In this document: positions 4,556-56,780 of the stretch, piece after piece
How positions within the stretch are numbered: the first letter of the stretch is position 1
Layout: each line of letters starts with the position of its first letter
Assembly (NCBI GenBank): GCA_049287205.1
Contig: JBAQFJ010000001.1
Span: forward strand, 943,653 to 1,007,652
Direction: 5' to 3'
Origin: Microgenomates group bacterium
GTDB lineage: Bacteria > Patescibacteriota > Microgenomatia > UBA10105 > UBA927
DNA: 64,000 bases
Position numbers and translations under genes: made by a program
The notes under the pieces: model-generated
Databases searched by the model: none
What the model was told of the DNA's origin: nothing
What the model saw: only the letters and a program-made list of their open reading frames with translations

Positions 4556-4627
4556 GTCAGCGTAGCTCAGTGGTAGAGCAGCGCCTTCATAAGGCGTGTG
4601 TCGCAGGTCCGATCCCCGCCGCTGACA
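4556..4627 (+). tRNA. tRNA with anticodon CAT (elongator Met or Ile2-lysidine type)
   Basis: GUCAGCGUAGCUCAGUGGUAGAGCAGCGCCUUCAUAAGGCGU... with paired G1-C72, D-loop AGUGGUA, anticodon loop UUCAUAA and discriminator A. The T-arm has one A-C mismatch. Confidence 0.7.
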
Positions 4628-28311: not shown

Positions 28312-29628
28312 ATGCGAATTATTGCCGATCTTCATCTTCATTCACGATTTTCTAGGGCCGTTTCCCGTGAGATGACCATAAAAAATTTGTACGCTTCGGG
28401 TGTCCGAAAAGGAATAGGTCTTATTGCAACGGGAGACTGGACACATCCCTTATGGATGGGTGAAATTGAAAGTGAACTGGAAGAGATGGGAAACGGATTT
28501 TTGCAGCTAAAAGGAACAACGGAAGGTCCAAAATTTTTGCTTTCCACTGAAATATCCTGTATTTTTTCCCAGAATGGAAAAACAAGACGGGTGCATACTC
28601 TTATCTGGGTTCCAACCATTGCCTCAGCGATCAAAATCAGCCAGGAAATTACTAAACAGGGTGGTAATGTACTTTCAGACGGAAGGCCAATTTTAGGGTT
28701 TACCCTGATTCGCCTTGCTGAACTTGTGTTGACCATTGAGCCTAAGGCTCTTATAGTGCCTGCACACATTTGGACGCCGTGGTTTTCTGTGTACGGGAAG
28801 ATGGGCGGATTTGACAGCCTAAAAGAAGCATTTGGAGAATATGAAAAATATATTTATGCGGTGGAAACCGGGCTTTCAAGCAGTCCTGATATGAACTGGC
28901 AAATTGGAGAACTTGATACCCGTTCTATCGTATCGTTTTCTGATGCACACAGCGGTCCAAAATTAGGAAGAGAGGCAACGATATTTTCTTTGCCTTCGCT
29001 GTCATTTGAGTATCTTACTGCGGCACTGAAAAATTATAAAAATAATCCGAAACTTCCACACATTGAATCAACCATCGAGTTTTATCCCGAGGAAGGAAAA
29101 TATCATTACACGGGGCATAGAGACTGTCATATTCGTTTGACGCCTAAAGAAGTCGAAAAAAAAGGAACAACCTGTCCTGTATGTGGGAAGCCGCTTACTC
29201 AAGGTGTGATGCAACGCGTTTCTGAGCTTGCAACGAGACCCCTCGCATCAAATAAGACAACAACAGATGGAATGAGTCATTATGAAAATGTCGGGCATGC
29301 ACGTCCTCCATTTATCATGTTGGTGCCACTTATGGAAATTATCGCCGAAGCTCTCGGCAGACCCGTCACGAGTCCGAGGGTTCAAGAGCGGTATGACGCG
29401 TTAATTAAGGAATTTACCAGTGATTTTGCTATTCTTATGCATGTCTCTATTGAAGAAATTGCCCGGGTATCACTTCCTGAAATAGCAGACGGAATTAAAA
29501 AAGTCCGTACAGGAGATATTGTAATTGATCCCGGATATGACGGGGTGTTTGGCGTTGTGAAAATCTGGAAAAGTGAAAAAGATAGGGATCTCGTCTCCGC
29601 TGCGGGAGAACAGGAAAGTATATTTTAA
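28312..29628 (+). CDS. Endonuclease Q-like PHP-domain nuclease (TIGR00375 family)
   Basis: ADLHLHSRFSRAVSREMT, GTGDW, RRVHTLIW, PAHIWTPWFSVYG, LSSSPDM and FSDAHSGPKLGRE motifs, plus C-terminal Zn-finger cysteines (HYTGHRDCH...CPVCGKPL). The pattern matches my recollection of archaeal EndoQ. Confidence 0.6.
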   Translation: MRIIADLHLHSRFSRAVSREMTIKNLYASGVRKGIGLIATGDWTHPLWMGEIESELEEMGNGFLQLKGTTEGPKFLLSTEISCIFSQNGKTRRVHTLIWVPTIASAIKISQEITKQGGNVLSDGRPILGFTLIRLAELVLTIEPKALIVPAHIWTPWFSVYGKMGGFDSLKEAFGEYEKYIYAVETGLSSSPDMNWQIGELDTRSIVSFSDAHSGPKLGREATIFSLPSLSFEYLTAALKNYKNNPKLPHIESTIEFYPEEGKYHYTGHRDCHIRLTPKEVEKKGTTCPVCGKPLTQGVMQRVSELATRPLASNKTTTDGMSHYENVGHARPPFIMLVPLMEIIAEALGRPVTSPRVQERYDALIKEFTSDFAILMHVSIEEIARVSLPEIADGIKKVRTGDIVIDPGYDGVFGVVKIWKSEKDRDLVSAAGEQESIF

Positions 29629-29639
29629 CCTCTTTCTTA

Positions 29640-29725
29640 TTGACCTTCAAAAACAAATCGTGATACGCTGATATGTAGAACCCTCCTTCGTCCTCAATAA
29701 AAAGGACTACGGCGGGCGAAGGAGG
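29640..29725 (+). promoter_or_regulatory. Putative promoter (TTGACC-18-TACGCT) and 5' leader hairpin that sequesters the Shine-Dalgarno of the downstream DUF4870 gene
   Basis: CCTCCTTCG (29682-29690) pairs with CGAAGGAGG (29717-29725). The latter is the RBS AGGAGG, 7 nt before the ATG at 29737. An inner GTCCT/AGGAC hairpin sits in the loop. Confidence 0.45.
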
Positions 29726-29736
29726 TGAATTAATCA

Positions 29737-30069
29737 ATGGCGCAAACAAAAGCAAACAACGAAAATTTAATGGGCGCAGCAACATACTTGTTGGCGTTTG
29801 TTACCGGAATTATTTTTTTAATCGTTGAGAAAGAAAGCAAATTTATCCGGTTTCACGCAATGCAGTCAACCATCCTTTTTGGAGGAATTTTTATCGCAAA
29901 CATCGTCTTAGGATTTATTCCAATTTTAGGTTGGTTACTTGGTTTATTGTTGTCCCTCGCATCATTTATCCTTTGGATTATCTGTATGTGGAAAGCATTC
30001 CAAGGAGAAATGTACAAAGTACCATTTGTTGGTAATTTGGCAGAGCAACAATTAAAGAAAATGAAGTAA
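29737..30069 (+). CDS. DUF4870-family small membrane protein
   Basis: AATYLLAFVTGIIFLIVEKESKFIRFHAMQS motif. Confidence 0.6.
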   Translation: MAQTKANNENLMGAATYLLAFVTGIIFLIVEKESKFIRFHAMQSTILFGGIFIANIVLGFIPILGWLLGLLLSLASFILWIICMWKAFQGEMYKVPFVGNLAEQQLKKMK

Positions 30070-30155
30070 TGGATATCTCGCGAGATACCTATTCTCTATG
30101 ACACCACTTGCCTTGGAAGGGGAGTGGTGTTTATAGTAAGAGATAAGAAAGGGGT

Positions 30156-30788
30156 GTGCACATGAAAATAATTGTCGGACTTGGAAATCCCGGAAGTGAA
30201 TATCAAGATACGCGTCATAATATCGGGTTCATGACGATTGATAAACTGGCAAAAGAATTGACCCCGGAATCCGTTTCCTGGAAAGAAGAGGCAAAATTTA
30301 GCGCCATGACGACAAAAATTGGTGAAGTTGTTCTGGTAAAACCGATTACCTTCATGAATAATTCTGGCGTTGCCGTGTCTGCAATTATGCATTTTTTCAA
30401 ATTGACTCCCGCTGATGTCTGGGTGATTCATGATGATATTGATCTGCCGATTGGAAAAATTAGGATTCGCCAGAAGGGAAGCAGCGCGGGACATCGGGGC
30501 GTTGAGTCTCTTATTGCCGAACTTAAAACTGATGCGTTTGTCCGATTTCGTCTTGGTATCGGGCGGGGTAAGTTGTTTAGTAAAGGTGATTCGGATACGC
30601 AAGATATTGAAAAAGGAAACGCGGGGAAAGCGCAACACGGAAGGCATCAATGGGATATCTCATTTGTTCTTTCCAGGTTTTCTCAGGGAGAAGCGGGAAC
30701 GCTCAAACATTTGATTAAAAATGGAACGGAAGCCGTCCGTATTGCACTGAATGAAGGCATTGATAAGGCAATGACACGATTCAATTAA
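30156..30788 (+). CDS. pth: Peptidyl-tRNA hydrolase (with a C-terminal extension)
   Basis: MKIIVGLGNPGSEYQDTRHNIGF N-terminus. Confidence 0.85.
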   Translation: MHMKIIVGLGNPGSEYQDTRHNIGFMTIDKLAKELTPESVSWKEEAKFSAMTTKIGEVVLVKPITFMNNSGVAVSAIMHFFKLTPADVWVIHDDIDLPIGKIRIRQKGSSAGHRGVESLIAELKTDAFVRFRLGIGRGKLFSKGDSDTQDIEKGNAGKAQHGRHQWDISFVLSRFSQGEAGTLKHLIKNGTEAVRIALNEGIDKAMTRFN

Positions 30789-43383: not shown

Positions 43384-43935
43384 CAATAAAAAGTTCGTTT
43401 CGCGGGATAAGCGATTACTGAGTAATCTTTTATCTCGCGACAAGAGCGCGTCGTCGCGTAAACCGCGACAATAGCACTTTTACAATATCAATAGTATCTT
43501 CCTTTATAAATAGGACAAGGAAGATACATGGTTTTTTTGAATGAAATATGAGTAGTTACATCGTAAGGGATAATCTTAAATGTTGATTACCTGTTACGAT
43601 GACATTTCGTTGGGCGACAATTTTTTTATTAAATGAGTCGAGAAAAATAGAGCAAAGCGCGCTAATTAATTTTAGCTCCTTTGTTCTCTGCAACGCTTTT
43701 AAAGTTGATAATGGATGCCCTGGGTATTCATGCCGAGGAAGGACGTATATGACAGCGATATTCGTCGGGGAGGAGTCATAATCCTGTGATCCGGCGGTTT
43801 CCGAATGGGGAAACCCGTCTAGTGAAGAACTAGTCAATGTACGATGAAGATAACCGAAAGGTTGGGATAGTCGTATGTAGGATACCGGGCGAACTGAAAC
43901 ATCTCAGTAGCCTGAGGAATAGAAATCAAGTACGA

Positions 43936-43967
<32 letters not shown>

Positions 43968-45684
43968 AAGTCTAAACCACAGCGCAAGTTGTGGGGTTGT
44001 AGGGCTTTCGATCTGGAATGCAATTGGTGATAACAGAATACCGTGGAATAGGAAACCAAAGAACGTGAAAGTCGTGTATGTGAAATTACCAATTCTCCTA
44101 GAGAGTTCCTAAGTACCATGGACCACGAAGGGTCTGTGGGAATCTGGGTCAACCACGATCCAAGACTAAATACATGAATGCACCGATAGTGAACAAGTAC
44201 CATGAGGGAAAGGTGAAAAGCACCCCGGAAGGGGAATGAAATAGTACCTGAAATTATCAACTAACAAACAGACGAAGTCCTGCAATCGCAAGATTTGGAT
44301 AACGTCGTGCCTATTGAAGAATGAACCGGCGAGTTGCCCAGTACGGCTTTGCTTAATCAAGTAACCCTTGAGGAGGCGTAGTGAAAGCGAGGTCTAATTG
44401 ACCGATTATGTTGTACTGGACAGACCCGAAACCAGGTGAGCTAACCATGAGCAGGGTGAATGTTGACGAAAGCCAACAAGAGGCCCGAACTCGTCAGAGC
44501 TGCAAATCTGTGAGATGACTTGTGGTTAGGGGTAATATGCCTATCGAACCTGGAGATAGCTGGTTCTCCCCGAAATATATTTAGGTATAGCGGTTACTAA
44601 TTCCCGGAAGGGGTAGAGCACTGAATGATACGTGTTTCGCAAGGAATACGCATCAATCAAACTCCGAATACTTTCCGTGATACCGTAACTAGTCAGACAT
44701 GCACGGCTAAGCGCGTGTGTCAAGAGGGCAACAGCCCGGACTTACATCTAAGGTCTCTAAGTGTGTGCTCAGTGGTTAAGGAAGTTATGAATTTAAGACA
44801 CCCAGGAAGTTGGCTCAGAAGCAGCCACCTTTTAAAGAACGCGTAACAGCGCACTGGATGAAATTCGTAGCGCCGAAAATGAACGAGGCTCAAGCACGCC
44901 ACCGAAGATTAAGATGTGCCGTAAGGCACGTGGTAGGGGAGCGTTCTGTTCTGCGGTGAAGGTTAGGCTGTAAGGCTGACTGGAGCGGACAGAAGTGAGA
45001 ATGCCGGTATGAGTAGCGTTTGGAAGTGAGAATCTTCCATGCCGAATGCGCAAGGTTTCCGAAGCAACGTTCGTCGACTTCGGGTAAGTCGGATCTAAGC
45101 CGAGGCCATTATTTTGATGGCGTAGGTCGATGTATAAACGGTTTATATTCCGTTACTATAGTGTATTGATTAAGACACAAAGGAATGACAATGAGGGATT
45201 TGTTGATGTCTCGCACTCGCGGGATCTAAGCATTAAAGTAGTGAGGACTGGTAAATCCGTTCTCATGTTTAACTAAAGATGTGGGGGAGTTTGAGGAGCA
45301 ATCCGATGACAACATCAATCGTTTCTTATTCGAGAAAAGTTTCGTTGTGAAATACATTGTATCCGTACTAATAACCAACACTGGTGCGCTGGTAGAGTAT
45401 ACCAAGGCAAGCGGGCGACAGCAGTTTAAGGAACTCGGCAACAAAAACTAGGTGTAACTTATTGGAGATACCTTACCTAGAGCAATCTAGGTCACAGTAA
45501 ACGACACTATGCAACTGTTTAACTAAAACACAGGTCTCTGCGAAGCGGAAACGCAACGTATAGGGGCTGACACCTGCCCAGTGCCGGTAAGTTAAAAATG
45601 GTCGGTAAACAAAAACGTAAGTTTTTTTAGCTGGCTTTTTAAGCTCCGGTGAACGGCAGCAGTAACTATAACTGTTCTATGGTA

Positions 45685-46292
45685 AATTTTCGTTGCTATA
45701 GTGAGGTAGACAAACCTCTCTTTTATTCCCCGTGCAAAAGGAAGGCGGGATAAAAGAAAAATTGTGCTAAATGCTGGAAACTCTGAGTATCTTGTGCTAC
45801 TATGTGTTATATGACACATAGTGAAAAAGCATCAAGTGCAGACAATCAGCAGGAAAGATTGGATCCGTGGTGGATTGTAGGATTTGTTGATGGAGAAGGA
45901 TGTTTTTCCGTTAGTACGTTTAAAAATTCAACTTGTTCAAGTGGGTTTCAAACTCTTTATGAGTTTGTGGTCACACAAGGAGAAACGAGTAAACGAGCTA
46001 TGGAAGCAATCAAAACTTATTTTGGTTGCGGAGCGATTTATATAAATCGCAGACATGATAACCATCATCACGATCTTTTACGATATTGTGTACGAAAGCA
46101 GGAAGATTTGAAAACAAAAATCATCCCGTTTTTCAGAAAATATCCATTACAATCTGCAAAACAAGAACAATTTGAGACATTTTGTCAAAAATTGTTTGAT
46201 CCAAAATCCTCAACGACTATACGCACAACTCGGTAAAACGAGAAGATATAGTCTGATCTTCATGGCGACATGAAGTTAACAAATTTTTATGA
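45685..46292 (+). other. Group I intron in 23S domain IV, after GGTA and before GCGAAATTCC (E. coli ~1931 site), carrying a LAGLIDADG ORF
   Basis: The exon sequence is interrupted between ...AACTGTTCTATGGTA and GCGAAATTCCTTGTCGGG. Boundaries are accurate to within 1-2 nt. Confidence 0.7.
45802..46236 (+). CDS. LAGLIDADG homing endonuclease (single-motif, I-CreI-like), intron-encoded
   Basis: VGFVDGEGCF motif. Located inside the 23S intron. Confidence 0.8.
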   Translation: MCYMTHSEKASSADNQQERLDPWWIVGFVDGEGCFSVSTFKNSTCSSGFQTLYEFVVTQGETSKRAMEAIKTYFGCGAIYINRRHDNHHHDLLRYCVRKQEDLKTKIIPFFRKYPLQSAKQEQFETFCQKLFDPKSSTTIRTTR

Positions 46293-46912
46293 GCGAAATT
46301 CCTTGTCGGGCAAGTTCCGACCCGCACGAAAGGTAGAATGACATAGTGACTGTCTTAAACTGTTACCCGGCGAAATTGAAATGGCTGTGAAGATGCGGCC
46401 TACTCACACATGGACAAAAAGACCCCATGAAGCTTTACTGCAATTTGGCACTGAAGAGTTTATTTTAACTGTCGAGTATAGGTGGGAGCCTTCGGGCGAA
46501 CAATGGAATACCACTCTTTAAAATGAATGAATCTTACTTACTCCTACATAAAAATCTAGGAGCAGGACACTGTCTGATGGGCAGTTTAACTGGGGAGGTT
46601 GCCTCCAAAAGTGTAACGGAGGCGTGCAAAGGTTGGCTAATCCTGAATGGAAACCAGGACGTGTCGTGCAAACGCGATAAGCCAGCTTGACTGCGAGACG
46701 TACATGTCGAGCAGATGCGAAAGCAGGCGTTAGTGATCCTCGATACCCTCGTGGGAGGGTTCGGGCTTAACGGATAAAAGCTACTCTGGGGATAACAGGC
46801 TGATCGCTTCCGAGAGTCCATATCGACGAGGCGGTTTGGCACCTCGATGTCGGCTCATCCTATCCTGGGGCTGTAGAAGGTCCCAAGGGTCCGGCTGTTC
46901 GCCGGTTAAAAG

Positions 46913-46948
<36 letters not shown>

Positions 46949-47310
46949 AGACCTTAGTGGAATAGACGCCACTATAACGAGCTGTCCATCCTTTACCGTT
47001 CTAGAATCTTTGTATATCGAGAAATTTTAAAGGATCCCGCAAAACAATACTAATTATATTGAATGCGGGAATAAATCTGACTAATTGCTGGAAACACTCA
47101 GTATCTAATACTACTTTTAAAAAAAGTAACAATGTATTAGTGGAGTCAATCAGCAGGGAAGGCCCCGCCTTGGCGGGGAACCCTCAGAGACTATATGTCA
47201 GATCTGGCTTCGCCAGAAAGATATAGTCCGAACTGTATGGCGACATACAGACTGCAGCAGAAATGCGTGCAGAGTCGTTTTTACATCAAAAAACGATATT
47301 AACATTATTG
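46949..47310 (+). other. ORF-less group I intron in 23S domain V, inserted after GAGACAGT and before TCGGTC (E. coli 2593 / I-CreI-type site)
   Basis: The exon resumes with TCGGTCTCTATCC...CTAGTACGAGAGGACCG. The intron ends in G. It shares an AAGATATAGTC...ATGGCGACAT core-like block with intron 1. Confidence 0.7.
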
Positions 47311-47754
47311 TCGGTCTCTATCCTGTGTGAGCGTTCGATTCTTGAGGGGAGTTCTCTCTAGTACGAGAGGACCGAGAGGAACAGATCCCTGGTTTGCCTG
47401 TTGTCACCCTGAGAGGTGGCACCGCAGGGTAGCTAGATCTGGAAGGGATAAGTGCTGAAAGCATCTCAAGCACCAAGCCCACCCCAAGATGAAGAATCGT
47501 TGAAGATCCGTTGTAGATGACAACGTTGATAGGCGAGAAGTGTACGCACCGTGAGGTGTTCTAGCTTACTCGTACTAATTGATCGAATGTTGTGGAGAAC
47601 AAAGGAAGATTTGTTCTATTCCCAAACGATATGAACATCGCCTCTGGGATCAGCAACAAGATTATCCCTTATGTGTAATTACTCATTCAAAAAGTGTGAA
47701 TATTGATATTAACAATTAAATATTGGTAAAATAGCGAATCGAGAACCGCTCTAG

Positions 47755-47882
47755 AGTTCTCCAGTTTTTTGAGCGACGTGGCACCACCCGATCCCATCCC
47801 GAACTCGGAAGTGAAACGCGTTAGCGCTGACAATACTTGGTCCGCGAGGTCCTGGGAAGATAAGTCAAAGCTGGGGAACTGT
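47755..47882 (+). rRNA. rrf: 5S ribosomal RNA (boundaries approximate)
   Basis: CCCATCCCGAACTCGGAAGTGAAACGCGTTAGCGCTGA core, and a helix I GTTCTCCAG/CTGGGGAAC extended into a long processing stem. Confidence 0.7.
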
Positions 47883-54889: not shown

Positions 54890-54920
54890 CAAACAGTATT
54901 TACTAGCAGATTTGGGGGAA

Positions 54921-54950
54921 AAGACCACCGATGAGGTGGTCTTTTTTGTT
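54921..54950 (+). terminator. Intrinsic terminator AAGACCACC-GATGA-GGTGGTCTT followed by TTTTTGTTT
   Basis: Read directly from the sequence. Confidence 0.7.
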
Positions 54951-54988: not shown

Positions 54989-55005
54989 GATTTGGGTTTG
55001 GGTCA
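54989..55005. repeat. 17-bp repeat GATTTGGGTTTGGGTCA, copy 1, in the non-coding island
   Basis: An identical 17-mer occurs at 55147-55163. A related AGCAGATTTGGG occurs at 54905 and 55143. Confidence 0.6.
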
Positions 55006-55146
55006 AAGGTGTTCCACCACATTTTCCTTCTCGCCTTAGTTCATTCGAACTGCGGCTCGAAGAGCGATTGTTGGCGGACAATAAAGACTAATTTCGAAGA
55101 CTCAATAAGTCTTTATTGCATTAAAAAAGCATCACTACCGCTAGCA

Positions 55147-55163
55147 GATTTGGGTTTGGGTCA
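55147..55163. repeat. 17-bp repeat GATTTGGGTTTGGGTCA, copy 2
   Basis: Identical to copy 1. Confidence 0.6.
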
Positions 55164-55508
55164 CCTTTTTCAAGATGATTTTGCTACGAATAGTAATGCT
55201 TTTCTTTTGGATATTGCCGTAAAGCAATATCTTATACCGCAGAATAACGAAAATGAGTAAATGTTGTCAAATTTTTTTTTGAAGCTAAATTATTTCACGC
55301 GGATTGTTGGAATGGCAAAATTTCATGATGAATTTCACGCCATAAAAAAAGTCGAGATATGCTGTATGGGAAATAGTTTGCCTGCCCAACAAACTATTCC
55401 CCGTACAAAACACCTCGACCGTTTTTTTTGAAAAAAGATTTTTTATAAAAATCTTATAGTTTGCCGATTGTAACGCGACAACGGGAAGTTGTCAATTAGG
55501 GAGATGCC

Positions 55509-56780
55509 CTATAACGATTCTTTTTTTAGGAGAGTGTGTGCAGCAAGTTTTCCAAATTCCACTGCATAGTTCGTTCCGCGATCCCATGGATAGATAGAAT
55601 CAAGATTTGCCAGATATATGTGTTTGTATGGTGTGACAATTACAGGTGCACACTTCGAATAATTGCAGGTATGCACGGGCTGCGCGTTAGGAACGGTAAA
55701 TAGAAACATGTTGGTGATATCTTTTTTTGAAAAATGAGGAGCAATTTTTTTGAGGTATGGGAAAAAGAGTGCTAGCAGTTCCTCTTTCGTTTTTGTAATG
55801 AATGCATGACCATCCGGCAGATAATTGCCGACATAACAAATATGGTTTCCTCCATAGTGGGATGACGCAATCATATTTGTGTGATCAACAACTGCCAAAA
55901 ATGGAAATGATCGGTCGTTAATGTTGAGCCAATACGTCTTGTTGAGTATTGGTTTTTTTGTTTCAAGAATGAGTGTTTGCGCCCAAAGGTGTGGAATTGC
56001 AAGTAATTGTTTTTTGTAGTGTTCGTCAAACCCGCCGATTGCCGCGGCAATTGAGGAGGGGACAGTATAGAGGATTGCATCAAACTGACGCTCATTGATG
56101 AGAAATCCGGTTGTCGTTTTTTTGATTGCTGTTATTGTGGTATTTGTCAGTATAGTGCCGCTATTTTTTTTGACAGCGTCTGCTAGCACTTCAACAAACC
56201 GAGAAAATCCGCCTCGAAAATACCCGAGACGGGGGGTTCTTTTGTAGAGTCTCGCCCAAAGCCAAGATGCTGCCACTTTGTCTGCGAATGGCCCAAATTT
56301 TGCGTCCAAGAGCGGTTCCCAGATCCGCTGCCATGCAATTTTACCGTTGATAATCTGAAATAATTTTTTTGCTGTGATGTGTTCGAGTGGCTTCCAAAAT
56401 GGATTGCATTTCATGAGGGCCGCAGTCATCCCCGTTCTTACGCGATCAATAAACGGCAATCCCGGGAATTTTAAAATAGTGAGTGGTGTGTCAAATGGAT
56501 GTTGCTCGCCATTAAGATATATAGAAGTGGTTGGGGAGAGGATAAGCATATCGTTTTTTAGTCCAAGTTCACGGGCAAGACTGATGAGTGCGCGGTCGTT
56601 GGTAAAAAAATGGTGATAGGTTTTTTCCAATTTCCAGCTCCATGAGGCGCTAGAAAAACCGTTTGCGAGTCCTCCGAGTGATTCATCCTTTTCAAACACA
56701 GTAACCGCGGCACCGCGTTTAGTGAGTTCATATGCGGCACTTAGCCCTGTGATCCCGCCGCCGATGATTGCAACATTCAT
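55509..56780 (-). CDS. FAD-dependent oxidoreductase of the UDP-galactopyranose mutase (Glf) / amine-oxidase-like superfamily
   Basis: N-terminal MNVAIIGGGITGLSAAYEL...VFEKDESLGGL dinucleotide fold, and TYHHFFTND resembling the Glf GAHIFHTND motif. Length 423 aa. Confidence 0.5.
   Translation of the reverse strand: MNVAIIGGGITGLSAAYELTKRGAAVTVFEKDESLGGLANGFSSASWSWKLEKTYHHFFTNDRALISLARELGLKNDMLILSPTTSIYLNGEQHPFDTPLTILKFPGLPFIDRVRTGMTAALMKCNPFWKPLEHITAKKLFQIINGKIAWQRIWEPLLDAKFGPFADKVAASWLWARLYKRTPRLGYFRGGFSRFVEVLADAVKKNSGTILTNTTITAIKKTTTGFLINERQFDAILYTVPSSIAAAIGGFDEHYKKQLLAIPHLWAQTLILETKKPILNKTYWLNINDRSFPFLAVVDHTNMIASSHYGGNHICYVGNYLPDGHAFITKTKEELLALFFPYLKKIAPHFSKKDITNMFLFTVPNAQPVHTCNYSKCAPVIVTPYKHIYLANLDSIYPWDRGTNYAVEFGKLAAHTLLKKESL

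Follow-up and report, generated by a model that had tools for sequence, protein, structure and literature searches.

A hairpin predicted to mask the ribosome-binding site of a DUF4870 gene appears to be a reduced member of a covarying leader RNA family in Microgenomates

The gene for a small DUF4870 membrane protein in a Microgenomates genome is preceded by a short leader in which the Shine-Dalgarno (SD) sequence faces a complementary upstream strand, and the question raised by this locus is what such a hairpin is for. An earlier note on the window (the whole stretch of 64,000 nucleotides that was analysed) had read it as a possible translational riboregulator, be it an RNA thermometer or a switch responding to a ligand or a protein. 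Taken alone, an SD-masking hairpin is ordinary; the importance of the locus lies in what its follow-up revealed, namely a well-supported structured RNA family without an Rfam counterpart in the CPR/Patescibacteria, organisms with small genomes and little non-coding DNA in which almost nothing is known about gene regulation. The family precedes an unusually conserved DUF4870 membrane protein, and at least one copy lies before pth and two are followed by no recognised gene. The features of the window leader are given below.

29640–29645, plus strand: −35 hexamer TTGACC of the DUF4870 gene promoter, recognised by sequence and conservation
29661–29669, plus strand: extended −10 element TGaTACGCT, its hexamer set 18 nt after the −35 hexamer, with the TG at 29661–62 and TGrTACGCT kept across the clade
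29681–29690, plus strand: C-rich 5' arm CCCUCC (29681–86) followed by UUCG (29687–90), the P1 5' strand of the family and here a perfect anti-SD (29682–29690)
29690–29707, plus strand: inner stem-loop of GUCCU (29690–94), loop caauaaaa and AGGAC (29703–07), from sequence and fold
29711–29716, plus strand: GGCGGG, the P1 3' strand of the family and conserved partner of the 5' arm, from alignment counts and the alignment to the family model R1
29717–29728, plus strand: CGAAGGAGG (29717–25), the 3' arm of the SD-sequestering helix, containing the SD AAGGAGGUGA (29719–28)
29737–30069, plus strand: DUF4870 (PF09685) small membrane-protein gene, 110 aa, under the leader

The complementarity on which the earlier note relied is borne out by the sequence: CCTCCTTCG (29682–29690) is the exact complement of CGAAGGAGG (29717–29725), with 26 nt between them, and the intervening loop does hold the GTCCT (29690–29694)/AGGAC (29703–29707) hairpin, closed by an 8-nt loop. 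The inner and outer stems compete because G29690 is used by both. RNAfold lengthened the outer stem to 12 bp (29682–29693 with 29714–29725, one pair being G.U) at −22.7 kcal/mol (z = −2.7, with 3 of 200 shuffles folding equally well), and an inverted-repeat search of the window recovered identical 12-nt arms. The SD, the full match of which is AAGGAGGTGA (29719–29728), is predicted to be wholly paired within this leader hairpin, as had been proposed. The spacing from AGGAGG to the start codon had been put at 7 nt and is in fact 11 nt, the motif ending at 29725 and the ATG beginning at 29737.

How far does this exceed chance? The stem by itself is not rare, given that the window contains 90 inverted repeats with stems of 9 bp or more inside 60 nt, and copies of CCTCCTTCG occur there at chance level (9 against 7.4 expected). 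The SD-opening cost of the window was reached by 35 of 1000 composition-matched shuffles of the 41-nt leader, the shuffle mean being 5.0 kcal/mol, and the predicted accessibility of the SD was the lowest for the DUF4870 gene (0.00, with two others at 0.01) among 19 crudely predicted SD-bearing genes of the window. Alone, the hairpin is modestly beyond chance; its conservation supports it. It is a real structure of the 5' untranslated region, situated directly downstream of a conserved promoter, and by folding it is predicted to mask the ribosome-binding site that serves the small DUF4870 membrane protein. An intrinsic terminator or attenuator was rejected, no terminator-like site being found in 29300–30400, where the stem is followed by UGAAUUAAUCAAUG with no U-tract.

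The promoter itself, TTGACC (29640–45) and TACGCT (29664–69) separated by 18 nt, was missed by a strict consensus scan; it is credible because about 14 related loci preserve nearly every base of it, with TTGACC unchanged in the window, L083, L084, L003, L005, L010, L088, L089, and L094 and near-variants elsewhere. The distance from promoter to stem, earlier put at about 10 nt, needed slight revision, the −10 hexamer ending at 29669, 12 nt before the stem. Going by the usual promoter spacing, the transcript would start near 29675–29678, some 4–7 nt before the stem.

Downstream of the leader, the DUF4870 gene is flanked by an MJ0043_C-domain gene on its upstream side and by pth (peptidyl-tRNA hydrolase) on its downstream side. 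Its protein product is 75–98% identical across hundreds of sequences from metagenomes that carry the label Candidatus Gottesmanbacteria, Microgenomates or Patescibacteria, and the window protein is 98% identical to that of L003, a locus without the hairpin. Judged from such comparisons, the protein is under strong purifying selection. Forty-eight positions were invariant in 30 DUF4870 sequences, the flanking genes being only about 65–80% identical in nucleotides, a conservation that is unusual. About 160 orthologous loci were collected, 80 from species-representative genomes and 80 from metagenomes, and the nearest of them (L003, L083, L084, and L085) stem from different species or genera, since their flanking gene is only 77–81% identical to that of the window at the nucleotide level. 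Between DUF4870 and pth, a hairpin of ACACCACU...AGUGGUGU followed by UUAU was also noticed at 30101–30130, with a promoter-like site (TTGCCT-18-TATAGT, 30108–30137) just after it, for which reason the two genes may be separate transcription units.

Comparison of these orthologous loci placed the window hairpin within a conserved, covarying leader RNA family, which lies on the gene strand between the conserved TTGAC/TGnTAnnnT promoter and the SD of the DUF4870 gene, a position that the window hairpin shares. Four leader types were found between promoter and SD. In the first there is no element at all, and about 22 nt separate the transcript start from the ATG. The small form reads CCCKCC-UUC-[inner stem]-UAC-GGMGGG, followed by CRAR-GGAGGUGA; in a third type, the small hairpin is succeeded by a second hairpin, P4 (cuAAGAAACRCU...AGYGUUUCUaag). 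The large form, which reaches about 120–135 nt in full, has P1 drawn around a domain of roughly 60–100 nt (helices P1b, P2, and P3), with or without P4, and its P1 begins about 4–11 nt after the −10 element, much as the window stem does. The small and large forms are tied together by L095 and L102, in which a small hairpin carries the flanks of the large form (gattaGCCC.CC... and ...GG.GGGTCTAAGAAAC).

The large form is, by its alignment, a solid structured RNA with the anatomy and covariation of a functional one. Twenty-three large-form leaders were aligned with 28 consensus pairs, 22 of which had undergone compensatory changes. When 39 distinct large-form sequences were aligned to the model, 96.4% of the cells paired, as against 77% with shuffled columns and 37–49% with slid partners, and changes on both sides were seen in 23 of the 28 pairs; the covariation score of 0.43 compared with 0.14 in shuffled alignments, none of 500 being as high. 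This second alignment was fitted to the model and somewhat favours the structure, the margin being large nonetheless. The G.U pairs of the large form point to transcription from the strand of the gene. Loop motifs of the larger RNA recur in L007, L016, L026, L035, L095, L100, L102, and others (AUUCGUA in P3, ACUCGUAAAACUCGUAA in P4), with CCUUCG present in the small hairpins; such recurrence might be a sign of a protein-binding RNA.

Being devoid of the internal domain P1b-P2-P3 and of P4 (29681–29725), the window hairpin scores only 9.5 bits with R1, which aligns 29678–29739 through P1 and the SD tail. It retains UUC (29687–89), GUCCU/AGGAC, and UAC (29708–10), that is, the inner stem of the small form flanked by the UUC/UAC internal loop of the family, and the inner stem covaries in other loci (AUCCC/GGGAU in L153, GC/GC elsewhere). 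Position, strand, the CCCKCC/GGMGGG arms, the UUC/UAC loop, the covarying inner stem, and the CRAR-GGAGGUGA tail are thus common to the window and the R1 family (alignments A2, A3, and A4); the window copy differs in lacking P1b to P3 and P4, in a U.C mismatch within P1, and in a predicted fold in which the SD is paired. On this comparative evidence, the window hairpin is homologous to the P1 hairpin of the covarying leader RNA family.

The earlier note had recognised no Rfam family in the hairpin, and none was found by cmscan, the search of 29400–30200 at E up to 10 giving five chance-level matches only. Nothing relevant was returned for 12 orthologous loci, the whole window, or the 55010 region, nor for two large-form leaders at E up to 5. 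A search of the full-text literature on DUF4870 and on riboswitches or RNA motifs of CPR or Patescibacteria yielded no description of the leader RNA, and the family, which has no Rfam match, appears not to have been described previously.

Which of the two helices open to the C-rich arm is the conserved one? Two competing folds were counted in alignment A4, made up of the 10 small-form leaders that lead straight into the SD and share the consensus CCCKCC-UUC-[stem]-UAC-GGMGGG-CRAR-GGAGGUG. In the family fold (P1 and the first two inner pairs), 96.3% of the cells were paired, and its covariation of 0.375 compared with 0.186 in shuffled alignments (0 of 500 as high) and at most 0.067 with slid partners. 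The pairing of P1 changes in concert between the C-rich arm and the proximal GGMGGG (CCCUCC/GGAGGG, CCCGCC/GGCGGG, and CCUGCC/GGCAGG), and the variable pair (K:M, columns 8–37) is G-C in four leaders, U-A in four, and otherwise in two, the window and L083. In the window, P1 comprises arms 29681–86 and 29711–16 with five of six pairs formed, U29684 facing C29713; the same U.C at the variable pair recurs in the large-form L128 and L130.

The pairing of the arm with the SD fared otherwise. Conservation or covariation of this stem in orthologues, the test named beforehand, was not borne out: 86.7% of the cells were pairable against 84.4% in shuffled alignments, a value matched by 64 of 500 shuffles; pairing is usually possible between a C-rich arm and a G-rich SD. 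The covariation of the anti-SD:SD helix in the same 10 leaders was 0.183 against 0.151 shuffled, with 58 of 500 as high. Covariation between the variable base of the arm and the central base of the SD (CCGCC-GGUGG, CCUCC-GGAGG) was rejected upon a hand count of about 40 element-bearing loci, 21 being compatible where 18.6 were expected. As far as the alignments tell, the SD pairing is not the conserved pairing, and there is no sign that evolution maintains it; the masking of the SD looks like a local peculiarity of the window genome.

This peculiarity is also apparent in the SD-opening cost, taken as the free energy required to keep the SD unpaired and computed for about 100 distinct orthologous leaders from their inferred transcript starts. 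The window leader, at 9.4 kcal/mol, was the highest of these, followed at 8.4 kcal/mol by the small-form leader L140, which is independent and also carries U at the variable position, and most orthologous leaders lay below 4 kcal/mol. The sister hairpin in L083 costs 3.0 kcal/mol, and it spans together with the hairpin-less L003 and L084 a range of 2.8–3.4; L083 has A in place of G29718, a single base which flips its predicted fold to the family fold. For the window, the SD-masked fold was computed at −23.6 kcal/mol, as against −14.6 for the family fold, the best of those that leave the SD free. Raising the temperature through 10, 20, 37, 50, 60, and 70 °C lowered the opening cost of the window leader to 11.4, 10.7, 9.4, 8.5, 7.9, and 7.1 kcal/mol respectively, and with so much still to be paid at 70 °C the thermometer idea of the earlier note fell. 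Of the broader proposal of a translational riboregulator, the predicted masking of the SD holds; the thermometer is discarded, the reduced hairpin bears no sign of a ligand, and the SD helix is without covariation.

The history of the leader bears on its function. In a neighbour-joining tree of the gene, which is short and resolves weakly, the leader types are interspersed, and the window and L083 stand beside L085 (large form, P1 being UCCGCC/GGCGGA) and the element-free L003 and L084. Between the window and L083, both stems are identical, five of the eight loop bases differ, and the flanking genes share about 80% of their nucleotides; stems unchanged while the loop diverged argue that the hairpin is under selection in the window lineage. 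Small hairpins in distant lineages share a UUCGC...GCUAC core and are on that account not independent random deletions. The simplest history, read from the alignments, would be that, in an ancestor of the small or the large form, a G in the P1 5' arm changed to U without compensation, breaking one P1 pair and creating CCUCC. Leaders at one site range from the full-size RNA through a bare hairpin to nothing, a natural series in which to ask how leaders are lost or simplified and how one substitution in an existing stem may create an anti-SD.

The family extends beyond this one site. A further copy within the window is the following.

55010–55129, plus strand: second, full-length family copy (P1, P1b, P2, P3, and P4), matched by R1 at 68.3 bits, E 1e-15

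It folds on its own into the family structure (−36 kcal/mol, z = −3.5), matches no Rfam family, has A.C at the variable position of P1, and is followed by no SD or recognised gene. At the syntenic site of the relative L294, only the 3' half of the RNA plus P4 is kept. In L105, the DUF4870 copy is joined by another, consisting of P1–P3 and a P4-like hairpin (1950–2100), immediately ahead of the pth ATG, which shows that the leader RNA is not exclusive to DUF4870; tandem copies were seen in L091, L100, L105, and L110. In orthologous loci totalling about 470 kb, nearly every R1 match (E up to 1) lay just upstream of the DUF4870 start, the exceptions being the L091 tandem copy, the L105 copy before pth, and two weak matches (L073 and L129), and a regular expression for the small module likewise matched almost only DUF4870 leaders in 630 kb. 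No further copies were detected within about 10 kb on either side of the DUF4870 gene in five long loci from three distinct genomes, nor any R1 copy in 703 kb of viral contigs, all of which contain a conserved 14-mer of the family. A dispersed or mobile high-copy repeat was accordingly rejected, the RNA being low-copy and tied to the DUF4870 locus. Pairing in trans of the 55010–55129 RNA with the anti-SD arm was rejected as well, 21 of 300 shuffles giving as good a duplex. In L078, an antisense small module, TCCTCCTTCGCTAAAGCTTCGGAAGG, with a P4-like hairpin was observed on the minus strand (1895–1938) of the DUF4870-pth spacer, with no gene downstream.

What, then, does the window hairpin do? 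The reading preferred here, held at about even chances, is that it represents a reduced member of the leader RNA in which an uncompensated U in P1 has given rise to a stable, probably constitutive, translation-damping hairpin. The family sits between the promoter and the DUF4870 SD in many Candidatus Gottesmanbacteria and related Microgenomates, with the C-rich CCCKCC pairing with the proximal GGMGGG to close P1 around a short inner stem or a large domain. In the window and L083, the arm has U and its partner has kept C, giving the U.C mismatch and an arm that reads CCUCC, an anti-SD; with UUCG facing CGAA, the arm pairs perfectly with the SD region. The 5' arm presumably being transcribed first, the hairpin would close once the SD is made, and 30S binding would be strongly reduced at all physiological temperatures, such that translation of DUF4870 would be damped constitutively by the element, which would incidentally also serve as a stable 5'-terminal stem and not be a sensor. 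Several observations sit uneasily with constitutive damping. Near-complete occlusion of the SD is surprising for a conserved protein unless something opens the stem; the U.C left uncompensated in the window, L083, L128, and L130 could mean that anti-SD pairing is selected, in favour of a regulated switch; and the 87% of SD-helix cells pairable in small-form leaders may make bistability a property of the family. The extreme opening cost could also be partly accidental, 3.5% of shuffles matching it, and one base (A for G29718 in L083) is already predicted to flip the fold. A regulated two-state switch, in which the 5' arm toggles between GGCGGG (SD free, on) and the SD (off) as a protein, small RNA, or small molecule recognised by the family, acting in trans, binds or stabilises a P1-type hairpin with its conserved UUC/UAC loop, is possible but somewhat doubtful. 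Two mutually exclusive helices do use one strand, and the two duplexes are near-isoenergetic in L036 (−12.6 vs −13.2 kcal/mol), L159 (−12.8 vs −13.5), and L140 (−12.4 vs −15.7), values for G-arm leaders being left out because there the SD side overlaps the P1 3' arm. The 87% pairability is accompanied by register 0 being the best among the slid controls, the UUC/UAC internal-loop bases are conserved in lineages scattered over the gene tree, and the larger RNA of the family has a riboswitch-like anatomy with strong covariation; the mismatch favouring SD pairing has persisted in front of a gene whose highly conserved protein must still be expressed. Translational platforms of the anti-SD/anti-anti-SD kind are established, the Vibrio vulnificus add adenine 'on' switch being an example, and the window leader resembles them in that one strand can pair with its P1 partner or with the SD, the formation of P1 freeing the latter, and in its position in the 5' untranslated region directly before the SD. 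It departs from the add type in having no aptamer domain, a family without a known ligand, an SD pairing without covariation, and no Rfam riboswitch match; where a riboswitch would have a covarying aptamer upstream, the window hairpin comprises P1 and a 5-bp inner stem (9.5 bits) with the family's internal domain gone. Switching is further disfavoured by the lack of association between the variable base of the arm (G/U) and the central SD base (A/U), about 21 of 40 loci being compatible against 18.6 expected, by a window off-state favoured by 9 kcal/mol, a large gap for any factor to bridge, by loop sequences that are not conserved, and by the want of a candidate partner, the pairing of the 55010 RNA with the leader being no better than in shuffles. 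A bolder form of this idea, in which the hairpin is the minimal form of a new CPR class of cis-regulatory RNA (the 120–135-nt, four-helix DUF4870/pth leader, also present at 55010–55129) that senses a ligand or protein and moves the C-rich P1 strand between its G-rich partner and the SD, the window copy being a working yet strongly off-biased platform, is more tentative and rather unlikely; were the family indeed a sensor, it would amount to a new class of regulatory RNA and offer a clue to the role of DUF4870.

At the other extreme from a switch, the hairpin could be a decaying relic of the larger leader RNA, under little if any selection for a function, its SD complementarity being the accident of a C-rich strand beside a G-rich SD. 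The interspersion of leader types across the gene tree fits such decay, as do the nearest relatives L003 and L084 with no hairpin at all, the half-deleted copy at the 55010-syntenic site, by which copies of the leader RNA are seen to decay, the shuffles, whose mean cost is 5.0 kcal/mol and of which 3.5% attain 9.4, and the SD helix without covariation. A relic is improbable all the same, given that both stems are unaltered between the window and L083, whose flanking genes are about 80% identical, with five of eight loop bases changed, that distant small hairpins share the UUCGC...GCUAC core and covary in a manner not expected of random deletions, and that neutrality is unlikely for a −23 kcal/mol stem covering the SD of a gene so strongly conserved. 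Equally improbable is that the stem, or P1, serves mainly to shield the mRNA at its 5' end against 5'-end-dependent RNases, the masking of the SD being a side effect. Stable 5'-terminal stem-loops stabilise mRNAs such as E. coli ompA, through its 5' untranslated region, and B. subtilis aprE, through its leader. Like them, the window stem is a stable hairpin a few nucleotides (about 4–7) from an inferred 5' end, the P1 of the large form being about 4–11 nt after the −10 element, and selection for a stable stem whatever its interior would explain how P1 outlasted the internal domain. The ompA and aprE stems exclude the SD, however, whereas the 3' arm of the window stem is the SD itself and the stem is part of a larger covarying family; moreover, the transcript start is itself an estimate, a stemless leader of about 22 nt suffices for many orthologues, and protection of the 5' end leaves unexplained the conserved internal loop, the covariation of P2–P4, and the copies that lie away from the 5' end (L105 before pth, the tandems of L091, L100, and L110, and window 55010). 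As for a thermometer, in which warming would melt the stem and free the SD, the pairing of the SD inside a leader hairpin provides no more than a general resemblance to the ROSE and fourU elements. In these, the helices are short and imperfect and melt over a few degrees, whereas the window helix is perfect, GC-rich, and 12 bp long, with contiguous, mostly G-C pairs without mismatches that are predicted to stay closed at 70 °C (the opening cost falling from 11.4 to 7.1 kcal/mol between 10 and 70 °C). No ROSE, fourU, or other Rfam thermometer was matched at E up to 10, and the relatives come from groundwater, sediment, and lake metagenomes; a thermometer is scarcely credible. The constitutive damper is the reading retained as the preferred one.

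Several further observations were made in the window. The 55010 copy sits in a non-coding gap of about 560 nt, which extends from a terminator-like hairpin (54919–54945) to a convergent FAD-oxidoreductase gene (55509–56780, minus strand). It is flanked by perfect 17-nt direct repeats, GATTTGGGTTTGGGTCA, at 54989–55005 and 55147–55163, and a second repeat of 14 nt, CTAGCAGATTTGGG, is found at 54903–54916 and 55141–55154; L294 lacks the first repeat together with the 5' half of the RNA, the downstream stretch ...GCATTAAAAAAGCATCACTACCGCTAGCAGATTTGGGTTTGGGTC being identical. Duplication, insertion, or recombination are possible origins of the flanking repeats. A 35-nt block, GCTACGAATAGTAATGCTTTTCTTTTGGATATTGC, at 55176–55223 (plus strand) is identical in L294 at about 4562–4610 (minus strand), the neighbouring oxidoreductase protein being only 75% identical there. 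More speculatively, a hydrophobic peptide of 15 aa might be encoded in the region of this block, as MILLRIVMLFFWILP in the window and, with TTG as the start codon, as LLLRIVMLFFWILR in L294; no SD is evident for it. At 55344–55426, a 37-nt inverted repeat, 78% complementary with a 9-nt gap, is followed by a T-run and may, from its sequence, represent a structured element, either a large terminator acting in both directions or one of another kind. Elsewhere, no 16S rRNA gene was found in the window; the 23S rRNA gene (43688–47597) spans 3910 nt against a model of 2925 positions, with a group I intron (77 bits) inside it at 46993–47250, and the 5S rRNA follows at 47760–47876.
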